64,000 nt of DNA, taken from the IMG/VR virus record IMGVR_UViG_3300020060_000009; one strand, written 5' to 3'. Under the pieces are notes generated by a model, which worked only from the letters and a program-made list of their open reading frames with translations, did not search any database and was not told where the DNA came from. This document shows, piece by piece, positions 10,255 through 30,363 of this stretch (the stretch's first letter is position 1; every line of letters starts with the position of its first letter). The stretch comes from a virus. Taxonomy: Duplodnaviria > Heunggongvirae > Uroviricota > Caudoviricetes. A program made the translations under genes and the position numbers.

Positions 10255-11538
10255 TTATACTTTTCCTTCTTCTTCCATGTCTAGAGTTCCCTCTGCCATG
10301 TTTTGGTTATCGTAACCCACGAAGGTAGCGCTCTTAGCTTTAAGAGTAAAGGGAGCAATTCCTTCTGCGCGGATTACCACGCCCTCATCACAAGGGCTAT
10401 CTTTATCTAGTGGGACAGCTCCTGGGAAGCCATCTTCTTTGTAACGGTGCATTTCTTCATGTCCAGCAAAGTCAATCCAGTCTTCTGGTTTAAACTCTTT
10501 GTACTTACCGCGCCATAGTAGTGGGACTACTTTCAGTTCACGGTCACGACAGAACTCTGCGATCTGGTCATAAGTCAGGTCGGCAACAACACCCTCTGGG
10601 TTAATCATTCCTACACGGTAAACGTATAAGTCTGCAACTCCCTGTGGAATCTGGTATGTGTACTTGCTCTGTAGTGGAGCACCCTCTGCTGTCCAGCCAA
10701 TAAGCTCACCATAGACCAAGTAGCCCTGTGGAATTTTGCCCATAAGCTTCTCACCTTCTGTGGACCAGATATCTGTGTCATAGAAGTGAACGTGGCTTGG
10801 ATTATTCTTGTCCTTAATAACACGGCGTGAACCGTAAACGTAGTCATACTCTTTTTCTTGGACAACTGCACCAATCTTCTTGGCAACTTTGTCCTTCCAT
10901 GTCATCTTGCGCTGCACGATAGTATTTGCAATACGAATAGATGTTCCGTGTAGTTTCTGTGTAACAGTAACATCTGCATTTTCAGGAATAACATGTGAGT
11001 TTTTGAAGTAGTTATCTGTGTCATAATGCTGTGGCAAGAACTTCTCATCAACACGGCTAAAGATTTTCTTGTTCTTCTCTAGTATTGTTTGTGCGCGAGT
11101 TGCCTTACGAATAAACTTCTTACAAATTTCATGGTCGCCAATGCGGTCAAACGTATCACCCTCAACGAATAATGAAGTATCTAACTTCTTAATGTAAGAG
11201 AGCGCACTTAGCTTGACCACAAGGGCATCCGAGCGATGACCACGCAGTTTAAGAGAGCGGATGTGTCGGTTATCTTCAAGATATCCAGACTCAGCCTGAT
11301 TCTCGTTCTTATCGTTGTGACGGTATAAGTTATTCTTGTAAGCAAATTCCTCTGAAAGCTGCGTACCTGCGGTAAATACCAATGCGAGGTCTCCGTAGTC
11401 AGAGGTCTTTGCTACAAGTGCTTGGCTTCCCAAAACTTGAAGTCCTACAAGGTTGTCTAAACCTTCTAGAGCCACAGGCTTTGGCAAGCGCACTATCACA
11501 CCTGCGTAGTCACTGTTTTCTGGTTCTAATAGTTTCAT
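10255..11538 (-). CDS. rnl: RNA ligase (Rnl2-like nucleotidyltransferase)
   Basis: Motif I QKLHGTSIR matches the KxHGxN covalent nucleotidyltransferase motif of T4 Rnl2-type ligases. Adjacent to pnk, the classic tRNA-repair pair. Confidence 0.65.
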   Translation of the reverse strand: MKLLEPENSDYAGVIVRLPKPVALEGLDNLVGLQVLGSQALVAKTSDYGDLALVFTAGTQLSEEFAYKNNLYRHNDKNENQAESGYLEDNRHIRSLKLRGHRSDALVVKLSALSYIKKLDTSLFVEGDTFDRIGDHEICKKFIRKATRAQTILEKNKKIFSRVDEKFLPQHYDTDNYFKNSHVIPENADVTVTQKLHGTSIRIANTIVQRKMTWKDKVAKKIGAVVQEKEYDYVYGSRRVIKDKNNPSHVHFYDTDIWSTEGEKLMGKIPQGYLVYGELIGWTAEGAPLQSKYTYQIPQGVADLYVYRVGMINPEGVVADLTYDQIAEFCRDRELKVVPLLWRGKYKEFKPEDWIDFAGHEEMHRYKEDGFPGAVPLDKDSPCDEGVVIRAEGIAPFTLKAKSATFVGYDNQNMAEGTLDMEEEGKV

Positions 11539-11603: not shown

Positions 11604-12383
11604 TTATAAACCAGCATGCCAAACATTACTACGGCCTAAGGGAGTTAAGTTAATCACCATAGAATCATTAGTAGCTTCAACCCATAATGTTTTGCCGTTC
11701 TTCTCTGTTAGATGAGTGACAGGTACGAACCAATCTATATAATTTTTCCAACCTAATTGCCTAAATTCTATTGCCATATTTACATCAGGACCGAGTCCAT
11801 TGCTTGAACCAAATTTGTGCATCTTATATAAATCAGCTCTGATTAAAGCACAATACAATCCACAGGCATCCACCTCTTCTACCTCGGTTGTCCCTACTTT
11901 GTTTTTCATAGATGTTATCTTTCGAGGATTATCTATATTATCAACTTTCCATGCGCCAACATATGGTGTTCCCCACCGTCCTAGTTCAACACCAGTAACA
12001 ACACCAACTGCTGGATAATTTTGGACATCGTTAACAAGCCAAGATAAAGCATTTTCAGGTAAAATTCCATCATCTTCAATTGAGAATATCCACTCAATAT
12101 CTTCTCCAATCAAACTTTTAATCTGATTATGAATTGAGCTAATTCTAGCCCTGCGTTGTGGGATTGTAACGGCTGAATCACCCCAGTTATTTGACCTAAC
12201 GCATAGTACGTCATTTAGGGGCAATGACGCAAGTTTATTATGAACTTTGATATATAAGTCATTCGAGCCGTCAACGACCACTAGAAGCGCTGTACGCTCC
12301 TCGTATGACTGGTTTAATAGTGATTCAAGTACAAGATCAAGGTAGGTCAGGCGACTTACTGGCAGTATTGTTAATATTTTCAT
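11604..12383 (-). CDS. family 2 glycosyltransferase
   Basis: VVVDGSND and a DxD-like EDDG. Overall GT-A fold pattern. Confidence 0.6.
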   Translation of the reverse strand: MKILTILPVSRLTYLDLVLESLLNQSYEERTALLVVVDGSNDLYIKVHNKLASLPLNDVLCVRSNNWGDSAVTIPQRRARISSIHNQIKSLIGEDIEWIFSIEDDGILPENALSWLVNDVQNYPAVGVVTGVELGRWGTPYVGAWKVDNIDNPRKITSMKNKVGTTEVEEVDACGLYCALIRADLYKMHKFGSSNGLGPDVNMAIEFRQLGWKNYIDWFVPVTHLTEKNGKTLWVEATNDSMVINLTPLGRSNVWHAGL

Positions 12384-12567
12384 TTTGTATTTTTAGTATT
12401 TCATTGTATTGTTTTAATATATCTTTTGATTCACGAACAGCTTTATCCCATTCACGATTTGGTGATTTGGCGCTAATAGCCTTGATATAAAGAGGCTCTG
12501 ACAAAACAGCGCGTAATAGCACAGCTAGTTTCGCATCAATTATTTCTAATCTCTCTTCTACTGTCAT
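12337..12567 (-). CDS. hypothetical small protein
   Basis: 76-aa ORF overlapping the neighbouring gene ends. Confidence 0.3.
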   Translation of the reverse strand: MTVEERLEIIDAKLAVLLRAVLSEPLYIKAISAKSPNREWDKAVRESKDILKQYNEILKIQNENINNTASKSPDLP

Positions 12568-13265
12568 TTTGTTTTAATTTTCTTAAATTTTTTGCCATTA
12601 ACTATCTCGAGCATTGTGTGGTCACCATAAGGCGTTCCATCCGCATAGGTAGAGAATGTATCAATACACCAAATATCCTTTGCAACTTCCCAACAAGTTT
12701 CACTAGGAGTATGACCAAACACCTGGGGAATTTGCGCATAACTTCCCCAACTTGGACGAACCCATAGAGGAGAATGATCTTGCCATAGATCATCCATCTC
12801 GTTAGTACCATTCCAGCCGTGTGCTATACCAGCATGTGAAAAAGTTACACCATCCTCTTCTAGAGTAATAGGTAGGCCAAGTAACCAGTCTTTTAGGTAT
12901 TTATACGCTGGCGCATTGATAGAAAGTTGTGTTACGGCGTTATAACCACTTTGTAGACTTGGAGTTTTGTTGACGTATATAAAATCATGGTTACCAAGAA
13001 CAAGCTTTACTTTGTCTTCGTTAGCTTGTTGCAACATAAAAAGTCTATGCCATGTATCAATGGATTCAAGACCGTCTTTACCAAAGTCGTCAGCATAATC
13101 TCCAACAAAAATAACACGATCATACTTAGGAAGCAGTTTTTCAACTCTATCTATTACAAATTGTTTCGTATGCACATCACCGACTGCTAATATTTTCATC
13201 TTGTTCCTTAATAAGTTTTTGTTCTTGATATTCGTTATATCTTCTTGCACCCTCTTCTGCATCAC
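12564..13265 (-). CDS. calcineurin-like metallophosphoesterase
   Basis: Motifs GDVH, GDYADD and GNHD in order, the classic Ser/Thr phosphatase / phosphoesterase signature. Confidence 0.75.
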   Translation of the reverse strand: MMQKRVQEDITNIKNKNLLRNKMKILAVGDVHTKQFVIDRVEKLLPKYDRVIFVGDYADDFGKDGLESIDTWHRLFMLQQANEDKVKLVLGNHDFIYVNKTPSLQSGYNAVTQLSINAPAYKYLKDWLLGLPITLEEDGVTFSHAGIAHGWNGTNEMDDLWQDHSPLWVRPSWGSYAQIPQVFGHTPSETCWEVAKDIWCIDTFSTYADGTPYGDHTMLEIVNGKKFKKIKTK

Positions 13266-13419
13266 CCTTGATTTTTTCTCTAGACTCGATTATTAAATCA
13301 ATAATCTTATTATTTTCGTCAACAGAAACTTGAGCTATTTCGTTACGTTGAAACAGAGAACGACTTTCCCCATCTACCATGTAAAAAGCATCTGTAGTCA
13401 TGTAACTACGCAAGGTCAT
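13177..13419 (-). CDS. hypothetical small protein
   Basis: 80-aa ORF. Confidence 0.3.
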   Translation of the reverse strand: MTLRSYMTTDAFYMVDGESRSLFQRNEIAQVSVDENNKIIDLIIESREKIKGDAEEGARRYNEYQEQKLIKEQDENISSR

Positions 13420-14440
13420 TGATCAGTTTCTCCCATTTTCCCTCAAGCTCATAATTAGAGAACTCTTCGTACCCTATATTATATGCTATCTTCTTCTCTG
13501 CTTGCAAGTCCTTTTTTGCTAAAAAGTCTAATCTCTGCCCTAAAGTAGCGTGGTTAACAGTGTAAAGATCAATTAAAGTTCTCGTCATAAACTTACCTGT
13601 TTCCGTAGCGGGGGTTAACCAATGTTGAGGTAATATTTTATCATTGGGCGAAATATCGGTCATAAGAACGGGCATTCCGGCACAGAGCGCTTCTGTCATT
13701 GGCAAACATTGTCCACCGTATCGTCTAGGAAGAATCATGGCATCAAAATCACGATACAATTCCACTTCATTTTCTGGACTTGATGTGTCAATTGTAATTC
13801 TTGGATCGTTATAAGTATTTACAACACCACCAACTTGTGTCTTAATTACTAATTCAAAGTCTTCACCACTATAGCGCATAGCTCTAATGAGGTCTTCTGT
13901 CCCATTACGATCATTTACTGCTTGTCTCCCCATGATATGCAAGAAGCGTTTTCTGCCCGTGCGTTTTAGGTTATGTTCTCTGACTTCTTTAAAGTCATCA
14001 ACAAACACAGGCGTGGGGAGATATTCGACACTGCCCCATAATGAACGTGCATCTGCTAAATGCCATCTACTAGGAGAAATAAGTTTATCGGGTAAAGTTA
14101 GTTCAGGTTGACGAAGATAATCAGCGAACTCCCAGTTGTATTGGTTGATTGTTTTGACTCCCATATGCTTTGCAAGGTCTACAAATCTAGTATTGTAAAA
14201 AATCTCACAAGTGATAACAATATCTATACCGCGAAGCCACTCTATAACCTGCTGGTTAGTCGGGAATCCGTTTATCTCCGTGACACTATATGTAGCATAG
14301 GTATCTGGATATTGTTTATTGCCGTTAAAAAATGAGCTGTTAATAAGCATAATCTCGTCTGGGCGAATCATCCGTGCTAAGTTGCGAGTCTGATTGCCCA
14401 AGCCAGTTCTATCACTTCGTGCTATTAGTCCAATTCTCAT
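13406..14440 (-). CDS. putative glycosyltransferase (GT-B like)
   Basis: 344 aa with a Rossmann-like N-terminus and an E-x7-E-like C-terminal region. Weak assignment; sits in a glycosylation cluster. Confidence 0.45.
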   Translation of the reverse strand: MRIGLIARSDRTGLGNQTRNLARMIRPDEIMLINSSFFNGNKQYPDTYATYSVTEINGFPTNQQVIEWLRGIDIVITCEIFYNTRFVDLAKHMGVKTINQYNWEFADYLRQPELTLPDKLISPSRWHLADARSLWGSVEYLPTPVFVDDFKEVREHNLKRTGRKRFLHIMGRQAVNDRNGTEDLIRAMRYSGEDFELVIKTQVGGVVNTYNDPRITIDTSSPENEVELYRDFDAMILPRRYGGQCLPMTEALCAGMPVLMTDISPNDKILPQHWLTPATETGKFMTRTLIDLYTVNHATLGQRLDFLAKKDLQAEKKIAYNIGYEEFSNYELEGKWEKLINDLA

Positions 14441-14646
14441 CTTATGCGCTCCACTTTAGATATATCTACAAATATATGCAGTTTCATCCAACAATCAAGT
14501 CTACTCGGAGGTTTAACCCTTGTAGGATTTGCAATTGGCATAAACCCAGGTATCTCAACAATTTTTCTTTTGCCACAACCAATGCAAACCACAATGCGTT
14601 CAACTCGATTAACGTTTTGTTTTCTCACTTGATATTTAGCTCTCAT
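14437..14646 (-). CDS. small Cys-containing protein
   Basis: 69-aa ORF with CIGCGKRK. Confidence 0.3.
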   Translation of the reverse strand: MRAKYQVRKQNVNRVERIVVCIGCGKRKIVEIPGFMPIANPTRVKPPSRLDCWMKLHIFVDISKVERIR

Positions 14647-15203
14647 TTTGTCGCCTCAAATACGAGGCTCTCTTTTGGCCGTGTATCATATTCACTACTT
14701 TCCAGTTGTACTACTTTCCGGAACCCCGCTTCTTCCAATACTTTCGCCATTCTTGCTGGTGTATATAGAGAATCCCTTGTGCTGTAGCCAGAGATAGCGA
14801 AACAAAGCTTATCGTCAATAGAACCCTCATCAATCGGTATGTCTTCACTTCGCCCCTCCTCATAAGATTTAAATACTTTTAGCAAATCCATATCAATCAC
14901 AACCAGCTTTGCTCCTGGCTTTAATGTTCTGTGGATGTTAATTAGCGCTTTATGCACAAGATAGTCGTTCATTGTACATAGCACATGGTTAATAACACCG
15001 CCGTCGAAACGCTCGATGTATTTATCTTCTGGTGTTTGTGTCATGTCCCAGTAATGGAAACTATCATTGCCAATGCTGCCATTGACAAAGATAGAATCAA
15101 AGTTATACCACTTCTCTTCCTCAGTACTTTCTTTTAAATCTGGTCCAGAACCGTAGTTAGCAAATTTAAACGGAAACATTTTTGCCCCACATGTTTGTAG
15201 CAA
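14643..15203 (-). CDS. class I SAM-dependent methyltransferase (putative)
   Basis: Rossmann-like core HVLCTMNDYLVHKALINIHRTLKPGAKLVV resembles the Methyltransf_11 C-terminal motifs. Confidence 0.45.
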   Translation of the reverse strand: MLQTCGAKMFPFKFANYGSGPDLKESTEEEKWYNFDSIFVNGSIGNDSFHYWDMTQTPEDKYIERFDGGVINHVLCTMNDYLVHKALINIHRTLKPGAKLVVIDMDLLKVFKSYEEGRSEDIPIDEGSIDDKLCFAISGYSTRDSLYTPARMAKVLEEAGFRKVVQLESSEYDTRPKESLVFEATK

Positions 15204-15648
15204 TCAGTTGTGCTCTTTTTTCATTTGCTATCTTTATAGCATGTTTTTTGTTTTTAGCCAAAACATCTATCCCCATAACCCATTCACCATTGTGCAATTT
15301 ATCTTCGTCTTTACCATGTGACCATCTTTCTCCGGTGTGGAAATGAGGGTATTCATGCTTAATAAAATTTGGTGTATCTAAATCCCATGAATATCTATCG
15401 CTACCGTGTTCATACACATCAAAGTCAGCAGGGTTTTGAGGCAATTCGCCGTTTTCAAACATATTAACATAAAAAATCTTATAACCATTTTGAATATAAC
15501 TTGGTGCTTCTGGATTAAGCGGATATTCTTCTACTCTTCTCTCGTAGAAAGCACCAGCAAAAAGTTCCGCCTTTTTTTCATCAGTAAATACACCAACTAT
15601 ATGATAGTCAGAGTAATCACCTTCCGTCACTACATAAGCATTATTCAT
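15166..15648 (-). CDS. hypothetical protein
   Basis: 160-aa ORF. Confidence 0.4.
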   Translation of the reverse strand: MNNAYVVTEGDYSDYHIVGVFTDEKKAELFAGAFYERRVEEYPLNPEAPSYIQNGYKIFYVNMFENGELPQNPADFDVYEHGSDRYSWDLDTPNFIKHEYPHFHTGERWSHGKDEDKLHNGEWVMGIDVLAKNKKHAIKIANEKRAQLIATNMWGKNVSV

Positions 15649-16286
15649 ATTTTATAAAACCTTTCCGGTACATACATTAAATATGGGTCTAAAATACCTG
15701 TCCCTATTTGTGAGCTGTAACACATAAGCGCTCTTATCTTATCTGCCATACGAGATTTCTCTTGAATTGTACGGGCTGGCTTGTATGCAATACCTAATTC
15801 TTTTAACCTAGTTGGAACAAGCTCTGGTTCTGTGACACGAATTGGCAAGTCCTCCCATAGCATGACTGGCAAGTCGGTCTCTAAGCTAAGAACTGCGTCG
15901 CTTACCCTTAAATGGTCTGGGTGCCCTAACCCAAGTGGGGCATAAATTCCTTCATATTCTCCACCATCTACAATTCTTTGCAGCACTTCTGCTATCTCTG
16001 ATTGTGTCACATCTTCGCCGTATTGTCCATCAGGAAAATCTAGGTCTACATTTGTCGCGCTTAATAAGGCAGTGGCAGCATCATTCTCTCGGCGACGTTC
16101 TGAAACTGCATCTTGGGCATTTTTGAACCCGCACTTTAAATCGTAAGGGGTTACTACAGTCTCCGAAGCATCTGGATATCCACCGAAAACGGTAACAACA
16201 GTAGTATCAGGGCGTTCTGCCATGAATTGACCAGCGCTAAGGATAGCGTCATCGAAGTGGGGGCTAATTATGAGTAACTTATTCAC
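15645..16286 (-). CDS. PIG-L / LmbE family N-acetylglucosaminyl deacetylase
   Basis: ISPHFDDAILSAG near the N-terminus and GHPDH, the PIG-L zinc-binding motifs. Confidence 0.7.
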   Translation of the reverse strand: MNKLLIISPHFDDAILSAGQFMAERPDTTVVTVFGGYPDASETVVTPYDLKCGFKNAQDAVSERRRENDAATALLSATNVDLDFPDGQYGEDVTQSEIAEVLQRIVDGGEYEGIYAPLGLGHPDHLRVSDAVLSLETDLPVMLWEDLPIRVTEPELVPTRLKELGIAYKPARTIQEKSRMADKIRALMCYSSQIGTGILDPYLMYVPERFYKI

Positions 16287-16388
16287 TTTCTACCTCTGCC
16301 AAAACAAAATATGATGGCGTCTCTGTTTCGCCTAACGGGATTGGTGGTTTAATGATCTCCCATTTGCTTCCATCATCAGCTGTAATTA

Positions 16389-17939
16389 TCATATCTTTTC
16401 CATCCAGAATCTAATATTATGGTTTTCCAACTCCTCACTTTTTACACTAAACTTACATTTACTATAAAAACCAGTTGTCTTTCCGTAGTGCTTTGTCGGG
16501 TCAAAGAAGTCCATAGACTGAATATCAAACCCTCTTACATGTGTCGGGTCAATCCATAAGAACTCTGCTTTCCAGCCTGGAGTCTGTATATACAATATCC
16601 CACCTGGCTTCAAAATACGATGACATTCTTCCAGAAACTTAATAACGCCATGATCTTCGCCGATATAAGGAGGAAGATGCTCAATAACATCAACTGCTTT
16701 GATCTCGCTAGCAGAATTGTCTTCAAATGGATAAGGAAATTTCATCAAATTATGGACAACATCTATGTTCGGCAAGTCGATCATATCCACATTAATCCAA
16801 CCCGGAAATGCGTCTTCACCTGCCCCTAAGTTTATTCTTAAATCTGGCTTAATTTCTATTGCTGTTGAATCTTTATCAATTGGTTTAATAGGTGACAATG
16901 GTTTGCCTTTCATTTCTTGTGTTGCTGTTATTGTTGTCGCTTTGTCAGAAACCTCAAAAACGTCGCCTGTGTGGGACTTTGGATCACCAAACGCCCCTTC
17001 GTCGTCTAAAGTATCTAAGAGGGCTTGTAGGCGCTTAGAATACGTCTGAGAGGACTTTACGAACTCGTGTCCTGCCTTGCGAATTGCTTCACGCTCTTCA
17101 TCATGCTCTAAATAGTAATTTATCTTCTCATCAAGCTCTTCAAAATTTCCGTATTCATAAAAGACTGCATTTACATTTTCTTGAAAAAGATCAGCCACAC
17201 CTTCAATCCGAGGATATATAGTGAAAGCACCGCGACCAATACTTTCAAAGAGACGATCTGACGTATAGTTTTTGTGTTTGAATCCAATATTGACAGAGTC
17301 ACCAACAGCGATTTTAGAGTTTGCATAAAGTTGATTAAGCTCTGTACCCCTGACTGTTCGTTGTGGATGTCCAAACTTTTTATATCTTTCTCCATACTTA
17401 TCCTCCAAATGTTTTACTAACTCGTAACGATAAGCCCATTCTTTGTGGCCGTATTCTGCACCTCCACCAACAAAGATGACATCTCCGCTTAATGAAGCAT
17501 CATTGTTTGGAGGGAGCATGATACACTCTTGTTCAAACACGCCGGGAAGAAGCCAGTAATGATTAATTCCTTTACTGTCGAAGAAAGCTTGTGATTCAGG
17601 ATCGCCATCTGCACTAAATACATATTCAGTTCTCCAAAACGGATCGCTCTCAATACCAGATTGTCTAGAAAGGCCAACATAAAGATCAAGGTGATAAGAA
17701 GCTGTTGGAATACCTCGCTCCTTTAATATCGCAAGATCAGCAAGTGTTACCATTTTGCCCCAAGTACGTGTATATAGAAATAGATCGGTGTCCTCTGGCA
17801 CTCTTTGAAGCCAAGATGGGTCATGATGAGCAAGTTCTTGGATGCGAACAACTTCATGACCCATGCTCTCAAGGGTCTTAGCGATATGGTTTTCTGTAGT
17901 GAAGTCTACACTATAATTTCCAACGTATGTTATTTTCAT
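16389..17939 (-). CDS. bifunctional glycosyltransferase / SAM-dependent methyltransferase (predicted)
   Basis: 516 aa. N-terminal 300 aa are GT-like. C-terminal VDVIEHLPP...ILKPGGILYIQTP is a Methyltransf_11/23 signature. Confidence 0.55.
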   Translation of the reverse strand: MKITYVGNYSVDFTTENHIAKTLESMGHEVVRIQELAHHDPSWLQRVPEDTDLFLYTRTWGKMVTLADLAILKERGIPTASYHLDLYVGLSRQSGIESDPFWRTEYVFSADGDPESQAFFDSKGINHYWLLPGVFEQECIMLPPNNDASLSGDVIFVGGGAEYGHKEWAYRYELVKHLEDKYGERYKKFGHPQRTVRGTELNQLYANSKIAVGDSVNIGFKHKNYTSDRLFESIGRGAFTIYPRIEGVADLFQENVNAVFYEYGNFEELDEKINYYLEHDEEREAIRKAGHEFVKSSQTYSKRLQALLDTLDDEGAFGDPKSHTGDVFEVSDKATTITATQEMKGKPLSPIKPIDKDSTAIEIKPDLRINLGAGEDAFPGWINVDMIDLPNIDVVHNLMKFPYPFEDNSASEIKAVDVIEHLPPYIGEDHGVIKFLEECHRILKPGGILYIQTPGWKAEFLWIDPTHVRGFDIQSMDFFDPTKHYGKTTGFYSKCKFSVKSEELENHNIRFWMEKI

Positions 17940-18775: not shown

Positions 18776-19035
18776 TTTTCAAATCTCCAATTACCATATT
18801 TCATTCTATTATCCAAAACTATTCTTATCCCAAATACCGTAGAGTTAGGGTCAAAAGGTCTATCTTTTGTTTTATCAACTTCTACATTTTCCAAATCTGC
18901 TGTTGCCATATCATAAAAGTCATTAAATGTCTTTTGAGAAAGTTTTAGCCTAGAGGGAGGAACCTGTATATCATCTATTGCGCGGATAAGATTAGCGAAT
19001 GTAATTGGCTCTGTGTTCATTATTCTGTTATCCAA
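18772..19035 (-). CDS. hypothetical protein
   Basis: 87-aa ORF. Confidence 0.4.
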   Translation of the reverse strand: MDNRIMNTEPITFANLIRAIDDIQVPPSRLKLSQKTFNDFYDMATADLENVEVDKTKDRPFDPNSTVFGIRIVLDNRMKYGNWRFEK

Positions 19036-19280
19036 TCTGGCTTCCTTGTTCCTGTGCCAATAAGTTTACATTTCTGCGCTAAATCCATCTGATCTACAAC
19101 ATTGTCATATTGATTCTCTTTTGAGGCAAGGATTCTCTTCTTAAACTCTGCTAAGCTCGAACGACTAGGGCTATTGTAAATGTTGTAAGAGATATATTGA
19201 GAACCTCCGACATTCACGACTACCGATGTATCACTTAGGTAATAAGTTATCCTGCCTCTTTTAACAACTTTGTGTTCCAT
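19020..19280 (-). CDS. hypothetical protein
   Basis: 86-aa ORF. Confidence 0.4.
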   Translation of the reverse strand: MEHKVVKRGRITYYLSDTSVVVNVGGSQYISYNIYNSPSRSSLAEFKKRILASKENQYDNVVDQMDLAQKCKLIGTGTRKPDWITE

Positions 19281-20164
19281 TATACGAACGCTGGCGGTAT
19301 ATCGCCATCCTTCTTCTTAATCGCGCTACGCTCACTAAACCAACCATAACATCCCTCAACATTACACTGATAACGCTGGTAGCGACCAGTCTTGGTTGCT
19401 CGAGTACCCTCTTCATGGTAATCAGATTGTAGACAATAAGGACAAGCAAGCTCAAGATTAGCAATCCTAAGTAAGCTAACTGGTGAACGATACCAAGGAA
19501 ATAACACCCTAAAGTCATCAATCGTCAATTTAACATCTTGGTTATTATAAATCGCCATCTTTTTAGCAGCTTTTAGACCAGCAGCGCCACCACAGATAAT
19601 ATCCCACCATAAATCAGCATGGGTTGTTTCTGTTTTACGTCCTTTACCTAAGAAGTCACTCAAGTAATTGAGAGAGTAGCTAGGAAGACGCATAATCTGT
19701 TTCGCAATCAATTTAGTATCGAGCTGTTGGTGGGGAACAACTGGTTTAAGTTTATGCTTAATAAAGAACATATTTGCCATCTTGTCATCGAATTGTTTCG
19801 AGTTATGACCAAGGGTTATATCTGTTTTTGTAAATAATTGATACAATTCTTTAACAAGTAATGTGTCATCTTTCGGGTCCCAGGAATACGTTTCCATTTG
19901 AGCGATTGTACGACAATGAACTTTTGGTTCATATTTAGGGTCCGATAATCTACTTGGGTCAACCCATGCATAAGAAAAGGAAAGCAAAATTGGTTGTTCA
20001 ATCACTTTATGAATATTGGTCTCCCAAACCCCGTAACTATAACCAAGTAAACCTGTACACTCTATATCATAGGCCAAGAGATTTGGTTCTCGTACCTGTA
20101 AGGTATCAATCCCACGCTCGCTGTCTTTTTCACTCATTTTTGTATTTAACCCCTTTTCCCACAT
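19280..20164 (-). CDS. DEDD-family 3'-5' exonuclease with C-terminal zinc ribbon
   Basis: AYDIECTG matches the Exo I motif of DnaQ-like exonucleases. C-terminal CPYC...C..C is a Zn-ribbon. Confidence 0.65.
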   Translation of the reverse strand: MWEKGLNTKMSEKDSERGIDTLQVREPNLLAYDIECTGLLGYSYGVWETNIHKVIEQPILLSFSYAWVDPSRLSDPKYEPKVHCRTIAQMETYSWDPKDDTLLVKELYQLFTKTDITLGHNSKQFDDKMANMFFIKHKLKPVVPHQQLDTKLIAKQIMRLPSYSLNYLSDFLGKGRKTETTHADLWWDIICGGAAGLKAAKKMAIYNNQDVKLTIDDFRVLFPWYRSPVSLLRIANLELACPYCLQSDYHEEGTRATKTGRYQRYQCNVEGCYGWFSERSAIKKKDGDIPPAFV

Positions 20165-20181
20165 TATATCGCACTTTTAAT

Positions 20182-20340
20182 TAAAACGCAAGCGTTTTCT
20201 TTTTATTCTTATTCTTATTTATATTCTTATTCTTATCTATGCTTGATAACCCTTACGCTAACCTCTGTTAATTTACACAGTTGGGTAAGGGTTTAAAAAC
20301 GCCTAACCCTTACGCTATCGTGAGCTAACTACGACGTAGT
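20182..20340. repeat. iteron/palindrome cluster (putative replication origin)
   Basis: Perfect palindrome aaaacgc-aa-gcgtttt. 14-bp direct repeat attcttattcttat x2. 13-bp repeat taacccttacgcta x2 with an inverted partial copy ttgggtaagggtt between them. Palindrome actacgacgtagt. AT-rich and located between divergent operons, upstream of the replication genes. Confidence 0.5.
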
Positions 20341-20424
20341 TGTGGTATAACCCACACACTATCGCTATGCTACACCGCTTTCGCTTATATGTCAACCAAT
20401 TATATGAAAAATCTTTCAAAATAA

Positions 20425-20456
20425 GCTTGTGTTTACGTTGGAAAAGGCGCATAATT
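20425..20456 (+). promoter_or_regulatory. conserved phage promoter (TTGTGT-N17-CATAAT)
   Basis: gcTTGTGTttacgttggaaaaggcgCATAATtc, upstream of the replication operon. Confidence 0.6.
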
Positions 20457-20496
20457 CAAAACACAAGGGGAATCGAAAAACGAGGGTATAACAAAC

Positions 20497-21168
20497 ATGA
20501 ACACATCAATTATTAAAAAGGACTTTTGGAAGTCCGACGAGTATGTAGTATTGCATTTAGATACAAAAATGGTGTATCTTTATTTGCTATCTTGTCCAGA
20601 TAAAGGCTATTTAAATGTTTTTAAATTAAATAAACATCTTGCAACTCTTTGTACGGGTGTATCTAGCAATTCTATAGAAGCTGGGCTTGAACAACTACAA
20701 AAGATGGGCTATATTGATCTATTTAATGGATATGTGGGCTTGTTAAAGGGTCATGTTACAGCAGTTGGTGGACGCTACGGAGGCGAGAATAAAGACAAAG
20801 AACTAGCATCATTACCAGTTGATATTCGTGAGCATTTTGGCTTAGATGATGAGTCTATAATAGATATAGAACCTACTAAAAGAGTAGTTAAAAAAACTGG
20901 CCCACCACCAGAGACAATTAAAAGTATAATCGCTAAACAACCAGAGGCTTTACGCGAGACTCTTCAAGACTTCGTAGAAGACCGTATTGAGCGTAAGAAA
21001 GCCCCAACTACCCGTGCCGTCAAGGGTTGGGTTAAAAAGCTAGAAGATATGTACCCCAAGAACCCAGCTAAACAAGCAATGTGCTTGCAACAATCTATTG
21101 ATCGTGGTTGGATGGGATTATTTGAAGTTAAGATGGATAGTACTACAGGAGGGGGAGAATTTATGTAA
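20497..21168 (+). CDS. replication initiation / replisome organiser protein
   Basis: N-terminal region resembles the phage replisome-organiser / DnaD-like domain. First gene after the origin-like repeats, followed by a helicase. Confidence 0.5.
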   Translation: MNTSIIKKDFWKSDEYVVLHLDTKMVYLYLLSCPDKGYLNVFKLNKHLATLCTGVSSNSIEAGLEQLQKMGYIDLFNGYVGLLKGHVTAVGGRYGGENKDKELASLPVDIREHFGLDDESIIDIEPTKRVVKKTGPPPETIKSIIAKQPEALRETLQDFVEDRIERKKAPTTRAVKGWVKKLEDMYPKNPAKQAMCLQQSIDRGWMGLFEVKMDSTTGGGEFM

Positions 21169-21473
21169 TGACAAGTCTCGTTACTCCAGAATACTGGAAG
21201 ATGTGGCTTGGTGATATGCCGATGCCAGAAGATGCTACTACAGATATGATGTGGGCAGCTCATGATGCAATGCAAGAGTTTGAGGCAAGGGATGAAGACA
21301 TACGAATGATTAATTGGTATGAAGAATCTAAGAAACACTATGTAAAAAAACGTGAGTTCTGGCTTCCACGCACAAATGAACCAGATTATGTTGATAAATT
21401 AAGAATTTACGATAACATATTGGAACAAATTGATGAAGGAATTGAATTTTTAAGGGAGCAATTAAATGGCTGA
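21168..21473 (+). CDS. hypothetical protein (possible helicase loader)
   Basis: 101-aa acidic ORF between the initiator and the helicase, translationally coupled. Confidence 0.4.
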   Translation: MTSLVTPEYWKMWLGDMPMPEDATTDMMWAAHDAMQEFEARDEDIRMINWYEESKKHYVKKREFWLPRTNEPDYVDKLRIYDNILEQIDEGIEFLREQLNG

Positions 21474-22398
21474 GAAAAAAGACTGGAAACAAAAAGCTGT
21501 AAATCGAATTGTTGAGCAGTTCGCCGATATGGATGAGCCTCAACAAGCTAAAGTCATGGATGCTATTAAGTATAACTACGCGCTCCAAGCAGCTAAAGAA
21601 GTCGGTATGACCAAGACTGTTACGTTTGGTGATATGTATGCAACAGCTATCGAGCGCCAAAAACACTTCAATAAGTTCGAGGGCTTTGGTTGCGGTCTCC
21701 CTTACTTCGACCGTGCCACCATGGGCTTTCGTGGTGGTGAGCTGATAATCATTGCAGCGCCTTCTAACTTCGGTAAAACGATGGTAGCTATGAATATTGT
21801 TGCGCAGCTAGCAGCAAATACTCTTAAAAAGGTCGTTATGATTACTATGGAAATGACACCCGCTGAGGTGAGTACTCGTTTGTTCAACATGGTGGATAAA
21901 GCAGATCATGACACACTAAAAGAAAACTTCATTATCCAAACGGAATTAACAGTTAGTGCCGAACACGTAAAAGCGATTGTCAAAAAACATAAACCTGATA
22001 TTCTTTTAATCGACCACTTAGGATTCTTAGCTAAACAAGAACCAGGGACAGAAGAGCGTCAACAGATTGACACAGCTATGGCTAAGATTAAGCGCCTTGC
22101 GATCAATGAGAATATCCCCATCATTATGATTAGTCATGTTAGCAAGACACGTTCTGGCTCAAGTGGCGAGGCGACTGTGTCAGACCTAAAGGGCAGTTCA
22201 GCAATCGAACAAGACTCTGATATTGTCTTCATGATTAACAAGCCAAAAAACCAAAACTTTATGGACCAAGGCATTATAGAGATTGTTTTGAAACTAGAAA
22301 AACATCGTACAAAGTCTCCGAGAGGATTATTTCATCAGAAAGTTTTAATCCAGGTGAAAGGTGTTCGGACTGATGGAAAATACACCGTGTATAATTAA
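21466..22398 (+). CDS. DnaB-like replicative helicase (RecA-fold C-terminal domain only)
   Basis: Walker A IIAAPSNFGKT and a Walker B hydrophobic stretch ILLIDHLGF. 310 aa. Confidence 0.7.
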   Translation: MAEKKDWKQKAVNRIVEQFADMDEPQQAKVMDAIKYNYALQAAKEVGMTKTVTFGDMYATAIERQKHFNKFEGFGCGLPYFDRATMGFRGGELIIIAAPSNFGKTMVAMNIVAQLAANTLKKVVMITMEMTPAEVSTRLFNMVDKADHDTLKENFIIQTELTVSAEHVKAIVKKHKPDILLIDHLGFLAKQEPGTEERQQIDTAMAKIKRLAINENIPIIMISHVSKTRSGSSGEATVSDLKGSSAIEQDSDIVFMINKPKNQNFMDQGIIEIVLKLEKHRTKSPRGLFHQKVLIQVKGVRTDGKYTVYN

Positions 22399-22606
22399 AA
22401 ACATAACCCTCATAGAGGTGACAAATGGAGTTCGCTATACTGGGCCAATAGATATGGAGGGCATGATACTTCACAGTGTTCAGGGTGAAGCGACAACACA
22501 TAGTAATGAACGCAAATATTTTTGCAACAACTGCCTAAAAACATTTAATGGTTCAGAAACATTTGACGAATGTAAAAACCATCTTGGTACATTTCCACTT
22601 GACTGA
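22361..22606 (+). CDS. small zinc-finger protein
   Basis: FCNNCLKTF...ECKNH, a C2HC-like pattern. Confidence 0.35.
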   Translation: MFGLMENTPCIIKNITLIEVTNGVRYTGPIDMEGMILHSVQGEATTHSNERKYFCNNCLKTFNGSETFDECKNHLGTFPLD

Positions 22607-22677: not shown

Positions 22678-23319
22678 ATGGAAACAAAAATAGGAATATA
22701 TCAAATAAAAAGAGATGGCACGGTCTTGTACATTGGTCAGTCTAGAAACATAAAAAATAGATGGCTCCAACATAAATATGAACTTAAAAGAAATAAACAT
22801 TGCAATACTTATCTACAATGAATGTACAATAAATATAACGACTTAGAGTTTTCAGTTTTAGAAGATAATATACCCGTCGAAGGGTTGACACCAAAAGAGA
22901 TATTTTATATCAACAAGCTAAAACCTCTTTGTAATATTGCTATACCGAACGGAGACGACAGCTGGACATACACGGAAGATAGAAACAGAAAAGTATCTGT
23001 AGGCAATCTTGGAAAGAAAAAGTCCGCAGAACATGCTCTGCATATAAGTGAAGCAAGAAAAGGTATGAAGCTATCCTATCCCGTGTGGAACAAGGGCAAT
23101 GGTGAATATATGTCGGGAGAAAAAAACTCTTTTTATGGCAAACATCACACACTAGAAGACAGGAAAAGAATATCTGAAACTAAGTCGAAAAGTAAAGTGG
23201 ACATTAAAAAGTTAATTCAATTCAGAAATAGCGGGATGAGCTATGCTGCCGTAGGGAGAGTACTTGGTGTCTCAAGAACCTTTGTAAACAGAAAATATAA
23301 ATTATGGACGGAAAAATAA
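22678..23319 (+). pseudogene. GIY-YIG homing endonuclease interrupted by an in-frame TGA (22819-22821)
   Basis: ATG at 22678 opens ...GIYQIKRDGTVLYIGQSRNIKNRWLQHKYELKRNKHCNTYLQ, then TGA. In the same frame the next ORF continues MYNKYNDLEFSVLE...NKLKPLCN, the rest of the GIY-YIG domain. NUMOD3-like repeats and a C-terminal HTH follow. The frame was checked as (22822-22678) mod 3 = 0. Confidence 0.6.
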
Positions 23320-27933: not shown

Positions 27934-28006
27934 TGGCTCCCTCGCTAGGACTCGCACCCAGATAACAGCCTTCAAAGGGCTGCGTCCTACTTTAGACGAC
28001 GTGGGA
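27934..28006 (-). tRNA. tRNA-Gln (anticodon UUG)
   Basis: Anticodon stem CAGCC/GGCTG with loop CTTTGAA. T-arm CTGGG-TGCGAGT-CCTAG. CCA encoded. Confidence 0.6.
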
Positions 28007-28011
28007 ATATT

Positions 28012-28098
28012 TGGCGGTGACAGTAGGATTCGAACCTACGGGGCTTTTGGCCCACAGCTTTAGCAAAGCTGCTCGATAAACCACTCTGACATATCACC
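28012..28098 (-). tRNA. tRNA-Ser (anticodon GCU), type II
   Basis: T-loop GGTTCGAATCC, long variable arm, anticodon loop TTGCTAA. CCA encoded. Confidence 0.65.
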
Positions 28099-28103
28099 GT
28101 ATT

Positions 28104-28180
28104 TGGCTGGAAAGGTAGGGGTCGAACCTACGAATTTTCTGGTTCAGAGCCAGGTGCCTTGCCTACTTGGCCACTTTCCA
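28104..28180 (-). tRNA. tRNA-Gln (anticodon CUG)
   Basis: Anticodon loop CTCTGAA flanked by CTGG/CCAG. T-loop GGTTCGACCCC. CCA encoded. Confidence 0.6.
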
Positions 28181-28621
28181 TTATTTAAATAAGTTATTAG
28201 CGACTACTACAATAATTGATATTATCGCAACTGCTGCTGCAATCGCACCGTATATTCTACCTACTGTTAGCTGGGAGCCTTTAGCCTTACCATCAGATAT
28301 ATTAATTCTGTCTGTAAGATCGCTTAACTTGCCTTCTAATGCTTTATGCTGAACAGTATATTCCTGCCTTGGCATTAAAGTACTAGATTGGTCTGCTAGT
28401 TGAGCTCTGAACTCATTAACGCTCTCAAATCGTTTCTCAGTAGAAACTTCTGCTTTATTAATAGCTTCTTTTGTTGCAGCTAAAGCAGCAGCTACTGCTT
28501 TCTCTTGCGATACAAGCGCAGCATCTATAGCTTTTTGATTATCTTCAAACCGTTGAGCGACATACTCTTTTAGAGTATCTACTGTCCAACCACTTTCATT
28601 TTTTTGTGTTTCACCTGACAT
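28181..28621 (-). CDS. coiled-coil protein with C-terminal membrane anchor
   Basis: 146 aa with a long Ala/Glu/Lys-rich helical region, then GAIAAAVAIISIIVVV TM. Embedded in the tRNA array. Confidence 0.45.
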   Translation of the reverse strand: MSGETQKNESGWTVDTLKEYVAQRFEDNQKAIDAALVSQEKAVAAALAATKEAINKAEVSTEKRFESVNEFRAQLADQSSTLMPRQEYTVQHKALEGKLSDLTDRINISDGKAKGSQLTVGRIYGAIAAAVAIISIIVVVANNLFK

Positions 28622-28651
28622 ATATACTCTAAGTATATAGGAAAGCTAATT

Positions 28652-28730
28652 TGGGGTGTAGAACGAGAATCGGACTCGCATCTCCTCCTTCACAGGGAGG
28701 CGCTTGCAACCAGTAAGCTACCTACAACAT
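28652..28730 (-). tRNA. tRNA-His (anticodon GUG)
   Basis: Anticodon stem CCTCC/GGAGG with loop CTGTGAA. Extra 5' G(-1) opposite C73, typical of tRNA-His. T-loop TCCGATT. Confidence 0.55.
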
Positions 28731-28733
28731 ATA

Positions 28734-28826
<93 letters not shown>

Positions 28827-28845
28827 TTTGGTGTGCCAGGTGGGA

Positions 28846-29241
28846 CTAATAACCAGTTTTTAAGTAAATTTCTCTACGTTTTTCTGGTGTATAAGCCTTT
28901 CTTCGACACGCTGATTTTGCGTCTCGGCAAGGCTGGCAATGACAACCTCTGTTGTACATTCCAATCTGACCATGATCTGCTAATATTTTCCTTGATGCTG
29001 CGACATTACAAGGCAGGTGGCTATAACCTATATTCTCCAAGTCAAAAAATAATTTGATTGGGTCTTCGCTATCTAACCAAGGTTCCATATGCTCTATAGA
29101 AAATGTTTCTCTATCTAGTGGCTTTTTACACCTGTAGCATACATGACCAGCTTTAACGGCAAAGTCGAATAATAAGTCTTTTAACAGCCGACCATTAGCT
29201 GTGCTAGGATTCATTCCTAGCTGTTCTTTCTTTTTGTCCAT
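28846..29241 (-). CDS. HNH homing endonuclease
   Basis: CYRCKKP...HMEP...N...H motif with flanking Cys pairs (CHCQPC). Lies between tRNA genes. Confidence 0.65.
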   Translation of the reverse strand: MDKKKEQLGMNPSTANGRLLKDLLFDFAVKAGHVCYRCKKPLDRETFSIEHMEPWLDSEDPIKLFFDLENIGYSHLPCNVAASRKILADHGQIGMYNRGCHCQPCRDAKSACRRKAYTPEKRREIYLKTGY

Positions 29242-29319
29242 AACAATCCTCGGATGTTTATTTTGGTTATTAATTTAATTATAACCTTTTCCGATTCTTG
29301 TCAAGGAAATGGTGGCCTC

Positions 29320-29396
29320 AGATGGACTCGAACCATCAGTCCCGAAGGATGGGAGGTTTAAGCTCCCTGCGTGAACCGTTTCGCCATGAAGCCATA
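29320..29396 (-). tRNA. tRNA-Leu (anticodon UAA), type II
   Basis: Anticodon stem GGGAG/CTCCC with plus-strand loop gtttaag. Long variable arm. CCA encoded. Confidence 0.6.
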
Positions 29397-29483
29397 TGGT
29401 GGGTCGTGAGAGACTCGAACTCTCAAGCCCTTGCGGGCAATAGGTTCTAAACCTATCGTGTATACCATTCCACCAACAACCCG
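29397..29483 (-). tRNA. tRNA-Leu (anticodon UAG), type II
   Basis: Acceptor GGGTTGT/ACGACCC. Anticodon stem ATAGG/CCTAT with loop TTTAGAA. Variable arm GCCCGCAAGGGC. T-loop TTCGAGT. Confidence 0.6.
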
Positions 29484-29572
29484 TGTGGTGCGCTTAGCTG
29501 GACTCGAACCAGCATGAGCTCTCGCTCGGACGCTTTTGAAGCGCCTGGGTCTACCTCTTCCCCCATAAACAC
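29484..29572 (-). tRNA. tRNA-Leu (anticodon CAA), type II
   Basis: Anticodon stem GGCGC/GCGTC with loop TTCAAAA. Variable arm GAGCGAGAGCTC. D-loop AGGTAGAC. Confidence 0.55.
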
Positions 29573-29624
29573 ATGTTTGTTAAAGACTCTTGACCATTTT
29601 ACCTGGCATATTTTCTCTTTCTTT

Positions 29625-29698
29625 TGGAGCGCCATACTGGAATCTAACCAGTTTAAACCGCTTTGCAGGCGGACGCGTGGACATTCCGCCAATGACGC
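29625..29698 (-). tRNA. tRNA-Cys (anticodon GCA)
   Basis: Acceptor GCGTCAT/ATGGCGC. Anticodon loop CTGCAAA. T-loop TTAGATT. Confidence 0.6.
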
Positions 29699-29782
29699 AT
29701 ATTTTATCTTGATTCCTCCGCTTATCCTTTAGGGATAGCTTGCTGATGTTTCATTGGGCGCAAGACGCGCGGAAGTTATTTT

Positions 29783-29860
29783 GGTGGCATCGGAAGGTTT
29801 CGCGCCCTCGACCCCCTGTGCTTCAAACAGGTGCTCTAACTATCTGAGCTACAATGCCAT
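29783..29860 (-). tRNA. tRNA-Phe (anticodon GAA) with atypical T-loop
   Basis: Acceptor GGCATTG/CGATGCC. Anticodon stem CCTGT/ACAGG with loop TTGAAGC. T-loop reads CGCGAAA instead of the canonical TTCGAAT. Confidence 0.5.
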
Positions 29861-29865
29861 AATTT

Positions 29866-29942
29866 GGTCGGGATAGTAGGAGTCGAACCTACCGCTTGAG
29901 ACGTCCAAGGTCCCCGTCACGCCTCGCAACTTCACCCCGATA
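29866..29942 (-). tRNA. tRNA-Pro (anticodon UGG)
   Basis: Anticodon stem GGGAC/GTCTC with loop CTTGGAC. T-arm GTAGGTTCGACTCCTAC. Confidence 0.55.
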
Positions 29943-29944
29943 TT

Positions 29945-30030: not shown

Positions 30031-30031
30031 T

Positions 30032-30108: not shown

Positions 30109-30204
30109 ATTTAGACACCCCGTGGAACTTGACATCCACATCTTCATCTATGTTACTTTGCTAGCGTTCACATAGGGTTGTTTTCTTTAAACTATGGGGC
30201 ATAT

Positions 30205-30362: not shown

Positions 30363-30363
30363 T

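Follow-up and report, generated by a model that had tools for sequence, protein, structure and literature searches.

A probable iteron-class replication origin combined with divergent promoters in an uncultured lineage of tRNA-rich phages

In the iteron plasmids, among them P1 (oriR), F (oriS), RK2 (oriV), pSC101 and R6K (gamma), the origin contains several direct repeats of 17–22 bp set about two helical turns apart, a repetitive A+T-rich unwinding element adjoining them, and the gene for the plasmid's own initiator beside it (PMC5043065). Helical phasing is a hallmark of such origins, and the repetitive 13-mers of oriC and RK2 are examples of the unwinding element (PMC5043065). Bacteriophage lambda carries four or five 19-bp iterons by an AT-rich region of about 40 bp (PMC5043065); each iteron is dyad-symmetric, is bound by an O dimer and lies inside the O gene, and the P protein hijacks the host DnaB. 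The oriL of the Bacillus phage SPP1 likewise combines direct repeats with an AT-rich unwinding element, and genes 38-39-40, in overlapping frames, encode an organizer, a small protein and a DnaB-family helicase (PMC6316719). A further group, the RepA_N initiators of pSK41, pTZ2162 and the Vibrio PLE (RepA), has a variable C-domain, and replication of the PLE depends on the binding of non-coding repeats (PMC7145576).

The locus described here belongs to a phage genome of ~99 kb, of which a window of 64 kb, the whole stretch of DNA that was analysed, leaves ~35 kb beyond it. It is an intergenic gap between a leftward exonuclease operon and a rightward replication operon, and is probably an iteron-class theta origin, linked in cis to an initiator-(loader)-helicase module and combined with divergent promoters. 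From left to right the gap holds P_L1, a hexamer array, five iterons, P_L2 and P_R, flanked by coding genes as follows.

19280–20137, minus strand: DnaQ-like 3'-5' exonuclease ('DNA polymerase exonuclease subunit'), 285 aa, first gene of the leftward operon
20163–20192, minus strand: P_L1, proximal leftward promoter, cTTGCGT-17-TATAAT, serving the exonuclease gene
20200–20240, no strand: hexamer array (ATTCTT/ATTTAT)n, T-rich and G-poor, candidate DNA unwinding element
20247–20265, plus strand: iteron 1 (TAACCCTTACGCTA...), forming the left arm of the inverted pair and passing at its 3' side into the spacer CCTCTGTTAWTTT
20261–20280: conserved spacer CCTCTGTTAWTTT within the pair of inverted iterons
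20276–20294, minus strand: iteron 2 (AAACCCTTACCCAACTGTG on the minus strand), inverted
20304–20322, plus strand: iteron 3 (TAACCCTTACGCTATCGTG), direct copy
20326–20344, plus strand: iteron 4 (TAACTACGACGTAGTTGTG), which includes actacgacgtagt at 20328–20340
20348–20366, plus strand: iteron 5 (TAACCCACACACTATCGCT), in this genome a degenerate copy, adjoining the P_L2 -10 box and covering the predicted P_L2 start point
20367–20395, minus strand: P_L2, distal leftward promoter, TTGACA-17-TAGCAT, pointing into the iterons and the hexamer array
20427–20455, plus strand: P_R, rightward promoter, TTGTGT-17-CATAAT, driving the replication operon
20459–20467, no strand: AAACACAAG, inverted copy of the P_R -35 element CTTGTGTTT (20426–20434), possible regulatory half-site
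20497–21168, plus strand: candidate initiator, 223 aa, in which a disordered linker joins an N-terminal winged helix to a conserved helical domain at the C-terminus
21168–21473, plus strand: 101-aa ORF overlapping both neighbouring genes, putative helicase loader by position only
21466–22398, plus strand: DnaB-family replicative helicase, short form, 310 aa

An initial annotation of this DNA had already proposed an initiator-binding origin in a 330-bp gap, and every element it listed is present where it had been placed. The left edge of the gap shifts. The start codons of related exonucleases (271–287 aa) align with an ATG at 20137, and this conserved codon, rather than 20164, is most likely the start of the exonuclease gene (phrog_403, E 1.8e-46); the true gap therefore runs from 20138 to 20496. 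The description of the whole as AT-rich is apt for the hexamer array but not for the gap overall, where GC is 0.35 against 0.40 for the window, flanking coding DNA is equally low or lower, and striking AT-richness is confined to 20200–20240. Local repeat density peaks across the 64 kb in the 300-nt window that begins at 20176, with 87 nt covered (mean 9.8, sd 14). The coding-strand GC skew is 0.158 and 0.116 in genes co-oriented with forks leaving ~20 kb and 0.020 in head-on genes, a contrast with p = 0.02 at third positions; the signal is weak, is confounded with gene class and would fit an origin anywhere between 20 and 44 kb.

The comparative evidence comes from 15 metagenomic phage genomes gathered by protein search and exact-protein look-ups, with comparisons made first on 12 genomes and then on 16. 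All of these preserve the gene order and the layout of the gap, with initiators only 46–74% identical. Non-conservation of the repeats among relatives had been fixed beforehand as the result that would speak against an origin; the repeats are conserved in the 15 related genomes. In the most divergent relatives, L012 and L018, the array is remodelled, with repeats in opposite orientation and a spacing of 33–56 bp. A distant homologue (L005, 23% identity) has no clear iteron array upstream, and the arrangement therefore cannot be extended past this clade. Among GenBank phages, megablast of 19000–22500 gave no match, and the helicase and exonuclease have distant relatives only (<33%). For the 15-mer AACCTCTGTTATTTT, sought in viral and genome contigs, flanking iterons occur among the matches listed and fetched only in the known relatives; the other matches look like chance, the pattern being too short for such collections.

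The array consists of five 19-bp copies with consensus tAACcCTTACgCTAtCGTc, arranged as an inverted pair (iterons 1 and 2) followed by three direct copies (iterons 3–5). Two direct copies of TAACCCTTACGCTA, exact at 20247 and 20304, and an inverted partial copy at 20281–20293 had been noticed before and are confirmed, but the count of two and a half falls short of the five iterons of ~19 bp. The element actacgacgtagt, previously described as a palindrome, is present, but it is symmetric in this window alone, with just 40% of cells pairing in the relatives; judged by the alignment, in which its counterpart is AACTACGACGCTA or AACCCTTACGCTA, it is an iteron variant, namely iteron 4. Spacing is rigid: iterons 1 and 2 are 34 bp apart in all but one of 12 genomes, from 2 to 3 the distance is 22–24 bp in all 12 (23 bp in 10 of them), and the next two intervals, measured in 12 genomes, are 22–23 bp (iterons 3 to 4) and 21–22 bp (4 to 5). 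By contrast, the distance between P_L2 and P_R drifts from 9 to 34 bp among genomes. Identity between genomes is 59–77% within iterons and 34–36% in the spacers between direct iterons, the latter matching the neutral baseline of 38% at four-fold sites of the initiator gene. Iteron 2 (pairwise identity 77%) and the spacer CCTCTGTTAWTTT (77%) share the top place among the modules scored. In the lineage L010, four iteron copies have changed in concert from AACCC to ATTTC or GTTTC. Among 300 dinucleotide shuffles of 20241–20400, none contained an exact 14-mer pair and none a four-copy family. This footprint-like conservation, together with the concerted change in L010, marks the iterons as candidate initiator-binding sites. 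They are asymmetric, the lone apparent dyad (iteron 4) not being conserved. The inverted repeats show no more covariation than shuffles do, and their interpretation as a hairpin or cruciform was rejected; what is conserved is the sequence of the arms, which points to protein sites. No second iteron cluster occurs elsewhere in the 64-kb window, the initiator gene contains no iteron match, and the initiator, putative loader and helicase genes (20497–22400) hold no repeat clusters, only two-copy repeats at chance level.

Beside the iterons lies the hexamer array, in which the two copies of attcttattcttat reported earlier are found at 20205–20218 and 20223–20236. Tandem Repeats Finder (TRF) assigns it a period of 6 (5.7 copies) and of 18 (2.3 copies). 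In a stability calculation the array (z 3.5) ranks third from the bottom among the 40-mers of the 64 kb, and the least stable 40-mer sits at the matching position in 12 of 12 genomes, with 51–73% T on the top strand; a period of 6 or 12 is retained in 10 of the 12, and top-strand G is 0–8% in all relatives. On its calculated stability, the array would be the site of melting, and its repetitive make-up likens it to the 13-mer elements of oriC and RK2 (PMC5043065).

Three promoters frame these elements. What had been called a perfect 16-bp palindrome, aaaacgcaagcgtttt (20183–20198), has 7-nt arms about a non-symmetric AA centre, and its symmetry is broken in relatives by an indel (AAAACGCAAGTGCTTTT); it overlaps the -35 box of P_L1 and is reassigned to the exonuclease promoter. 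A P_L1-type -35/-10 pair scoring 9–9.5 of 12 is present in 11 of 12 aligned genomes, in nine with TATAAT and a spacer of 16 or 17 nt, in L019 and L023 as TTTACA-17-CATACT, and CTTGC-N16-20-TATAAT occurs four times in the window against 0.41 expected. P_L2 is consensus-like and the sole site called in a promoter scan (10 of 12 matches); the form TTGAC(A/T)-17-TA(G/A)CAT or TAGGAT is kept in 9 of 12 relatives and visible in four added genomes. The conserved promoter first placed at 20425–20456 is borne out as P_R, TTGTGT-17-CATAAT at 20427–20455, with 72% identity among relatives; its class has nine plus-strand copies in the window against 0.12 expected and, with four that carry TATAAT, 13 in all. 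Within the window, the inverted -35 copy is unique to this promoter of the class, and the AAACACAAG/CTTGTGTTT pair is complementary in 91% of cells across relatives, without covariation. Iterons 1–4 are clear of every -35 and -10 box, and iteron 5 alone touches a promoter. Two aspects of this layout count against an origin, namely that iteron 5 sits on the P_L2 start as an operator would, and that 19-bp sites spaced 22–24 bp apart between divergent promoters also fit repressor operators such as lambda OR.

The rightward operon encodes what appears to be a replication module. Its initiator gene begins 131 bp past the last iteron (20366 to 20497) and is so placed in all relatives. The protein matches phrog_678 ('replication initiation O-like', E 1.5e-11), DnaD-like PHROGs and, slightly under the cut-off, Pfam HTH_36; no O-family match was found in Pfam or NCBIfam. 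Structure comparison finds its winged-helix fold in common with RepA_N, DnaD and Orc domains, its best viral structural matches are labelled 'Replisome organizer' or 'replication protein', and in other proteins its two domains are found in new combinations, independently of each other. Sequence searches of PDB with the initiator and with the 101-aa family gave no usable match. The 101-aa ORF keeps its position in all relatives (86–102 aa); its product has no homology among PHROG, NCBIfam and PDB entries, and a word-index search returned only itself. The helicase is identified by DnaB_C (E 8.8e-31) and phrog_19 (E 2.5e-41), and scores under the respective cut-offs against TIGR00665 and TIGR03600. 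The three frames overlap, and their order is kept in all relatives.

Set against the described systems, the locus shares the basic make-up of the iteron plasmids. Where that class has at least three phased repeats of 17–22 bp, the gap has five of 19 bp, the direct copies 21–23 bp apart in 12 genomes; the adjacent A+T-rich unwinding element is predicted by the stability calculation, and the replicon-specific initiator encoded in cis is an organizer-like gene present in all relatives. As in the plasmids, inverted copies of the repeat occur too, and the initiator probably also regulates transcription (PMC5043065). Unlike in them, DnaA boxes (≤1 mismatch) are absent across the genomes checked save for one non-conserved site in L017, and no other host-factor sites were found. 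Further differences are an organizer-like winged-helix initiator with its own DnaB-type helicase in place of a Rep_3-, pi- or TrfA-type protein, an inverted pair placed beside the unwinding element and not over the promoter of the initiator gene, and a setting in a ~99-kb tRNA-rich phage genome.

The phage systems match in part. The order of organizer, small protein and DnaB-family helicase in overlapping frames is that of SPP1, but oriL lies within gene 38, whereas the repeats here are upstream with none inside the gene, and the 64 kb contains no second, oriR-like cluster. Nor is sequence homology to G38P or G39P apparent: tblastn of the initiator against 50,697 GenBank phage records found no similarity to any deposited phage, a profile search with the 101-aa family against PDB gave no match, G39P (PDB 1NO1) included, and the helicase has 310 aa as against 442 aa for G40P. 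With lambda the locus shares the number and length of the iterons beside an AT-rich region, an initiator that carries the PHROG label 'O-like' and, like O, would pair an N-terminal DNA-binding domain with a C-terminal partner-recruiting one, and nearby transcription that probably aids opening. It departs from lambda in that its iterons are asymmetric, mostly direct and intergenic, rather than dyad-symmetric and inside the initiator gene, and in that this phage supplies its own helicase. The RepA_N type, defined by its N-terminal domain and by semi-palindromic iterons around a poly-A tract, does not fit, as the initiator has no Pfam RepA_N match and the iterons are not so built.

These comparisons lead to a model in which the 223-aa protein would bind the five 19-bp iterons through its N-terminal winged helix. 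With direct iterons two helical turns apart, the phased array could bend or wrap the DNA, while divergent transcription from P_L1 and P_R would contribute negative supercoiling by the twin-domain effect; jointly, these may melt the T-rich hexamer array at 20200–20240. The C-terminal domain of the initiator would then recruit the phage DnaB-like helicase, probably through the 101-aa protein. Since iteron 5 overlaps the P_L2 start point, binding by the initiator is probably coupled to leftward transcription through the origin. That the origin fires is what we infer from its sequence: the core of the initial proposal passes every sequence-based test applied, with two of its five elements reassigned.

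The alternative that survives best, although we consider it unlikely, holds that the repeats are operators only, through which the winged-helix protein or another phage regulator controls the divergent promoters, especially P_L2, in an early/middle switch or an autoregulatory loop, with replication starting elsewhere, e.g. by recombination-dependent or terminal initiation. The region does lie between divergent promoters, iteron 5 adjoins the P_L2 -10 and covers the predicted +1, a winged-helix fold matches many transcription factors, and the conserved inverted copy of the P_R -35 element at ~+5 to +14 suggests protein-mediated control; the Rep proteins of iteron plasmids are moreover themselves autorepressors (PMC5043065). 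Yet the -35 and -10 boxes of both P_L1 and P_R are clear of iterons 1–4, and the sites are asymmetric direct repeats that lack the dyad symmetry of operators, so that the repressor-operator pattern of dyad-symmetric sites over promoter hexamers is not what is found. A pure operator region would also not need the conserved, repetitive stretch of minimal stability beside the array, and the protein matches replication organizers in both sequence and structure and heads an operon with the replicative helicase.

Distinctly unlikely, in our view, is an origin opened or primed by transcription, in which the P_L2 transcript, after crossing the iterons, would form a persistent R-loop in the hexamer array and serve as leading-strand primer, with the initiator gating P_L2. 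Origins primed by R-loops or transcripts are those of T7, T4 (oriF/oriG) and ColE1. P_L2 is the region's best consensus promoter, present in 9 of 12 relatives with its orientation towards the array retained; with 0–8% G on the top strand of the array, its transcript there would be ~80% purine. The phage also encodes an RNase H-like protein (33015–33545), and no primase was found among the scanned ORFs of the window. A primase could, however, sit in the ~35 kb beyond the window or in unscanned window ORFs, P_L2 is absent from L012 and matches poorly in L010 and L023, and its role may be no more than early transcription of the leftward operon, whose leader would contain the origin. A sub-threshold CrcZ match was all that Rfam returned, and no RNA structure or family was detected.

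It is enticing to speculate that array and transcript cooperate in a hybrid origin, a proposal to which we give little credence. The sigma-70-type P_L2 would start in iteron 5 and fire through initiator-bound iterons into the pyrimidine tract, the purine-rich RNA would act as R-loop or primer, and the initiator would gate P_L2 as well as place the helicase on the displaced strand, with the conserved 13-nt spacer CCTCTGTTAWTTT inside the inverted pair as a possible site for a further factor. If true, this would be an origin in which RNA priming of the T7, T4 and ColE1 kind meets protein-driven opening as in lambda and the iteron plasmids.

It is highly improbable that the repeats serve partition, as a centromere-like site, or packaging, as a pac/cos site: phased direct-repeat arrays do occur at plasmid parS/parC sites and some pac sites, but the flanking genes are the exonuclease and the initiator-helicase operon, with no gene for ParA, ParB or a terminase beside the gap, and the phage looks virulent, with 26 tRNAs and no integrase or partition genes among scanned ORFs.

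The gap is rather likely to be an origin of the ordinary plasmid or lambda style, not new in kind, and leaves the understanding of replication origins in general unchanged. The comparative footprinting over metagenomic relatives used here can tell real binding sites from incidental palindromes. The result is a precise map of a probable origin and early control region in an uncultured lineage of ~80–100 kb tRNA-rich phages, which comes from environmental metagenomes (soil, rhizosphere and groundwater by sample names) and has no cultured relative. The 2.3-kb cassette of origin, initiator, 101-aa ORF and helicase is a candidate self-contained replicon, with potential uses in host-range work and synthetic biology.

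The exonuclease gene (minus strand) and the candidate initiator gene (plus strand) of this phage are separated by an intergenic gap whose best-supported interpretation is that of a replication origin, a reading we consider probable. The initial annotation placed the start of the gap at 20164; however, the exonuclease start is most likely a conserved ATG at 20137, and the gap therefore spans 20138-20496. The repeats listed in that annotation are all present in the sequence, and the finding is both genuine and significant: 300 dinucleotide shuffles of 20241-20400 produced neither an exact 14-mer pair nor a family of four, and nowhere in the 64 kb are repeats denser than in the 300 nt starting at 20176 (87 nt covered vs a mean of 9.8, sd 14). 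Other parts of the description need revision. The gap is not distinctly AT-rich (GC 0.35 vs 0.40 in the window, and not below the flanking genes), and the supposedly perfect 16-bp palindrome aaaacgcaagcgtttt, which overlaps the -35 box of the leftward promoter P_L1, is interrupted by a non-symmetric central AA between its 7-nt arms and loses its symmetry in relatives. A second palindrome, actacgacgtagt, proved to be one of five iterons (It4); its dyad is kept in only 40% of cells among relatives, where this position reads AACTACGACGCTA or AACCCTTACGCTA.

Features of the gap
20192 to 20163, minus strand: promoter P_L1, cTTGCGT-17-TATAAT
20200-20240: T-rich hexamer array, period 6
20247, plus strand: iteron It1
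20294 to 20276, minus strand: iteron It2
20304, plus strand: iteron It3
20326, plus strand: iteron It4, containing actacgacgtagt
20348, plus strand: iteron It5
20395 to 20367, minus strand: promoter P_L2, TTGACA-17-TAGCAT
20427-20455, plus strand: promoter P_R, TTGTGT-17-CATAAT

This organization is not peculiar to one genome. Fifteen distinct related loci were recovered, and every one that reaches far enough repeats this order, with the exonuclease (minus) separated by a gap of 318-385 nt from the initiator, small ORF and helicase (plus); a single architecture is common to two alignments of 12 (A2) and 16 (A4) genomes. The iterons share a 19-nt consensus, tAACcCTTACgCTAtCGTc, drawn from 62 sites. 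Mean pairwise identity between genomes is 0.38 at four-fold degenerate sites of the initiator gene, taken as the neutral baseline, 0.59-0.77 in the iterons, 0.34-0.36 in the spacers between direct iterons (It3-It4, It4-It5), 0.47 in the It2-It3 spacer and 0.26 between P_L2 and P_R. Conservation is footprint-like, in that the iterons are kept while the sequence separating direct copies is not. The iterons are rigidly spaced, It1 to It2 at 34 bp in 11 of 12 genomes and the next three steps at 22-24, 22-23 and 21-22 bp, whereas the P_L2-to-P_R distance drifts over 9-34 bp. In one relative, L010, TTTCTTACGCTA replaces AACCCTTACGCTA in four iteron copies, a concerted change. Covariation of the inverted arms did not rise above shuffles, and from the alignments the arms look like protein sites on duplex DNA rather than the two sides of a hairpin. 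No further iteron cluster was detected in the window and no repeat cluster within the initiator, small-ORF or helicase genes; no DnaA boxes were found, and an Rfam search of the region gave no match. The It1-It2 spacer CCTCTGTTAWTTT (20261-20280; 77% pairwise) shares with It2 the highest conservation of any module in the gap, and matched no nameable site, being neither a DnaA box nor convincingly an IHF site. In the two most divergent relatives, L012 (4830-4903) and L018 (39-124), the array is remodelled into two or three copies of an 18-nt unit that lie 33-56 bp apart and are turned the other way, like It2; P_L2 is lost in L012.

In iteron origins, phased iterons adjoin an unwinding element that is repetitive and A+T-rich, and the initiator is encoded in cis (PMC5043065); the arrangement of the gap matches this defining layout. 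The hexamer array is the third least stable 40-mer in the window (z 3.5); in each of the 12 genomes tested, no 40-mer of the gap is less stable than the one at this position, and in most loci this holds for the whole ~10-kb locus. Among 12 genomes its top strand is 51-73% T and 0-8% G, and a period of 6 or 12 is preserved in 10. The iteron array is flanked by promoters firing outward, P_L1 and P_R, and by the twin-domain model such divergent transcription would increase local negative supercoiling. Of the 12 A2 genomes, 11 have a good -35/-10 pair for P_L1, with TATAAT and a 16- or 17-nt spacer in nine and TTTACA-17-CATACT in L019 and L023. P_L2, the sole site called by a promoter scan and kept in 9 of 12 genomes, is directed into the iterons. 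The promoter-like pattern CTTGC-N16-20-TATAAT occurs four times in the window vs 0.41 expected: 13478-13508 (minus), 20163-20192 (minus; P_L1), 36117-36146 (plus) and 45723-45752 (minus).

The first genes of the rightward operon encode the 223-aa helix-turn-helix initiator candidate, a 101-aa ORF, a 310-aa DnaB-like helicase, a homing endonuclease and a RusA-like resolvase. The initiator model (pLDDT 78) comprises an N-terminal winged helix (1-90) joined by a disordered linker to a conserved C-terminal helical domain. Foldseek against viral models placed 'Replisome organizer' on top (E 8e-8) alongside other replication proteins, and PHROGs returned 'replication initiation O-like' (E 1.5e-11). 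When 1.84 billion proteins were searched with a profile, 2,731 relatives emerged, and because many match the N or C domain alone, the family is modular. The 101-aa ORF, conserved in position among relatives (86-102 aa), found no homologue in homology searches; by position, it could be a loader. Gene order equals that of SPP1 genes 38-39-40; however, SPP1 oriL lies inside gene 38 (PMC6316719), whereas the array here is outside the initiator gene. Coding-strand GC skew is 0.158 and 0.116 for genes co-oriented with forks leaving ~20 kb vs 0.020 for head-on genes (third positions, p = 0.02), a signal confounded with gene class that gives no fine localisation of the origin.

The main rival, a purely transcriptional operator array, draws on the overlap of It5 with the predicted start of P_L2 and on the winged helix, which regulators commonly carry. 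The repeats, however, are asymmetric and direct, an array resembling an unwinding element flanks them, and the protein is organizer-like; we regard this rival as unlikely. An origin primed by a P_L2 transcript forming an R-loop across the pyrimidine-rich array, which would bring the most novelty, is more doubtful still, and a partition or packaging site is highly improbable.

P_R belongs to a phage-wide class, gcTTGTGTtt-N17-(C/T)ATAAT, with 13 copies in the window; nine plus-strand copies have the CATAAT form (0.12 expected) and four are TATAAT variants (0.22 expected). Such an unusual -35 element points to a factor specific to the phage or to modified sigma specificity.

Sites of the P_R promoter class
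Plus strand: 20427, 24893, 31485, 33514, 41400, 41711, 42377, 43528, 46229, 52478
Minus strand: 30857, 31469, 41384

The P_R -35 element (20426-20434) has an exact inverted copy at 20459-20467, just downstream of the -10 box, which is kept in 91% of cells among relatives, is missing from the other 8 promoters of this class and may be an autoregulatory site. Minus-strand members of the class face the tRNA blocks. The 26 tRNA genes of the window lie in two minus-strand blocks (27934-31329 and 38874-41007) amid plus-strand genes, and include a tRNA-Ile(tat) and one (39355-39429) whose call gives an abnormal anticodon of two bases, 'tt'.

The leftward operon (1-20 kb) carries tRNA-repair and glycosyltransferase functions. 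Its minus-strand CCA-adding enzyme, Pth2 peptidyl-tRNA hydrolase, polynucleotide kinase-phosphatase and RNA ligase (1312-2319, 7935-8483, 9346-10248, 10255-11538) make up a set for tRNA maintenance and repair alongside the tRNA genes and fit counter-defence against anticodon nucleases. A 281-aa protein (8538-9383, minus) matches the S-adenosylmethionine synthetase N-terminal domain only (E 4.3e-11) and phrog_1569, a family of unknown function. Directly downstream of the exonuclease gene, 11604-17939 (minus) encodes three or four glycosyltransferases, a PIG-L-type deacetylase and a methyltransferase domain, a cluster kept in relatives that may serve DNA or surface glycan modification. On the plus strand, a NUMOD3 homing-endonuclease gene (22678-23319), preceded by a short GIY-YIG-like ORF, lies between helicase and resolvase; it is a mobile insertion, since most relatives (e.g. 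L018, L020, L022, L023) lack it there.

The window belongs to a large phage-like genome. Neither megablast of 19000-22500 nor tblastn of the initiator gave a match among 50,697 GenBank phage records, and the helicase reaches at most 25% identity to such records among the matches listed; by these comparisons, there appears to be no close cultured phage. A 99-kb metagenomic contig carries an identical initiator, and a protein search returned 29 homologues at 46-74% identity. In kind, the candidate origin would add one more to the well-known iteron class, from an uncultured phage lineage.
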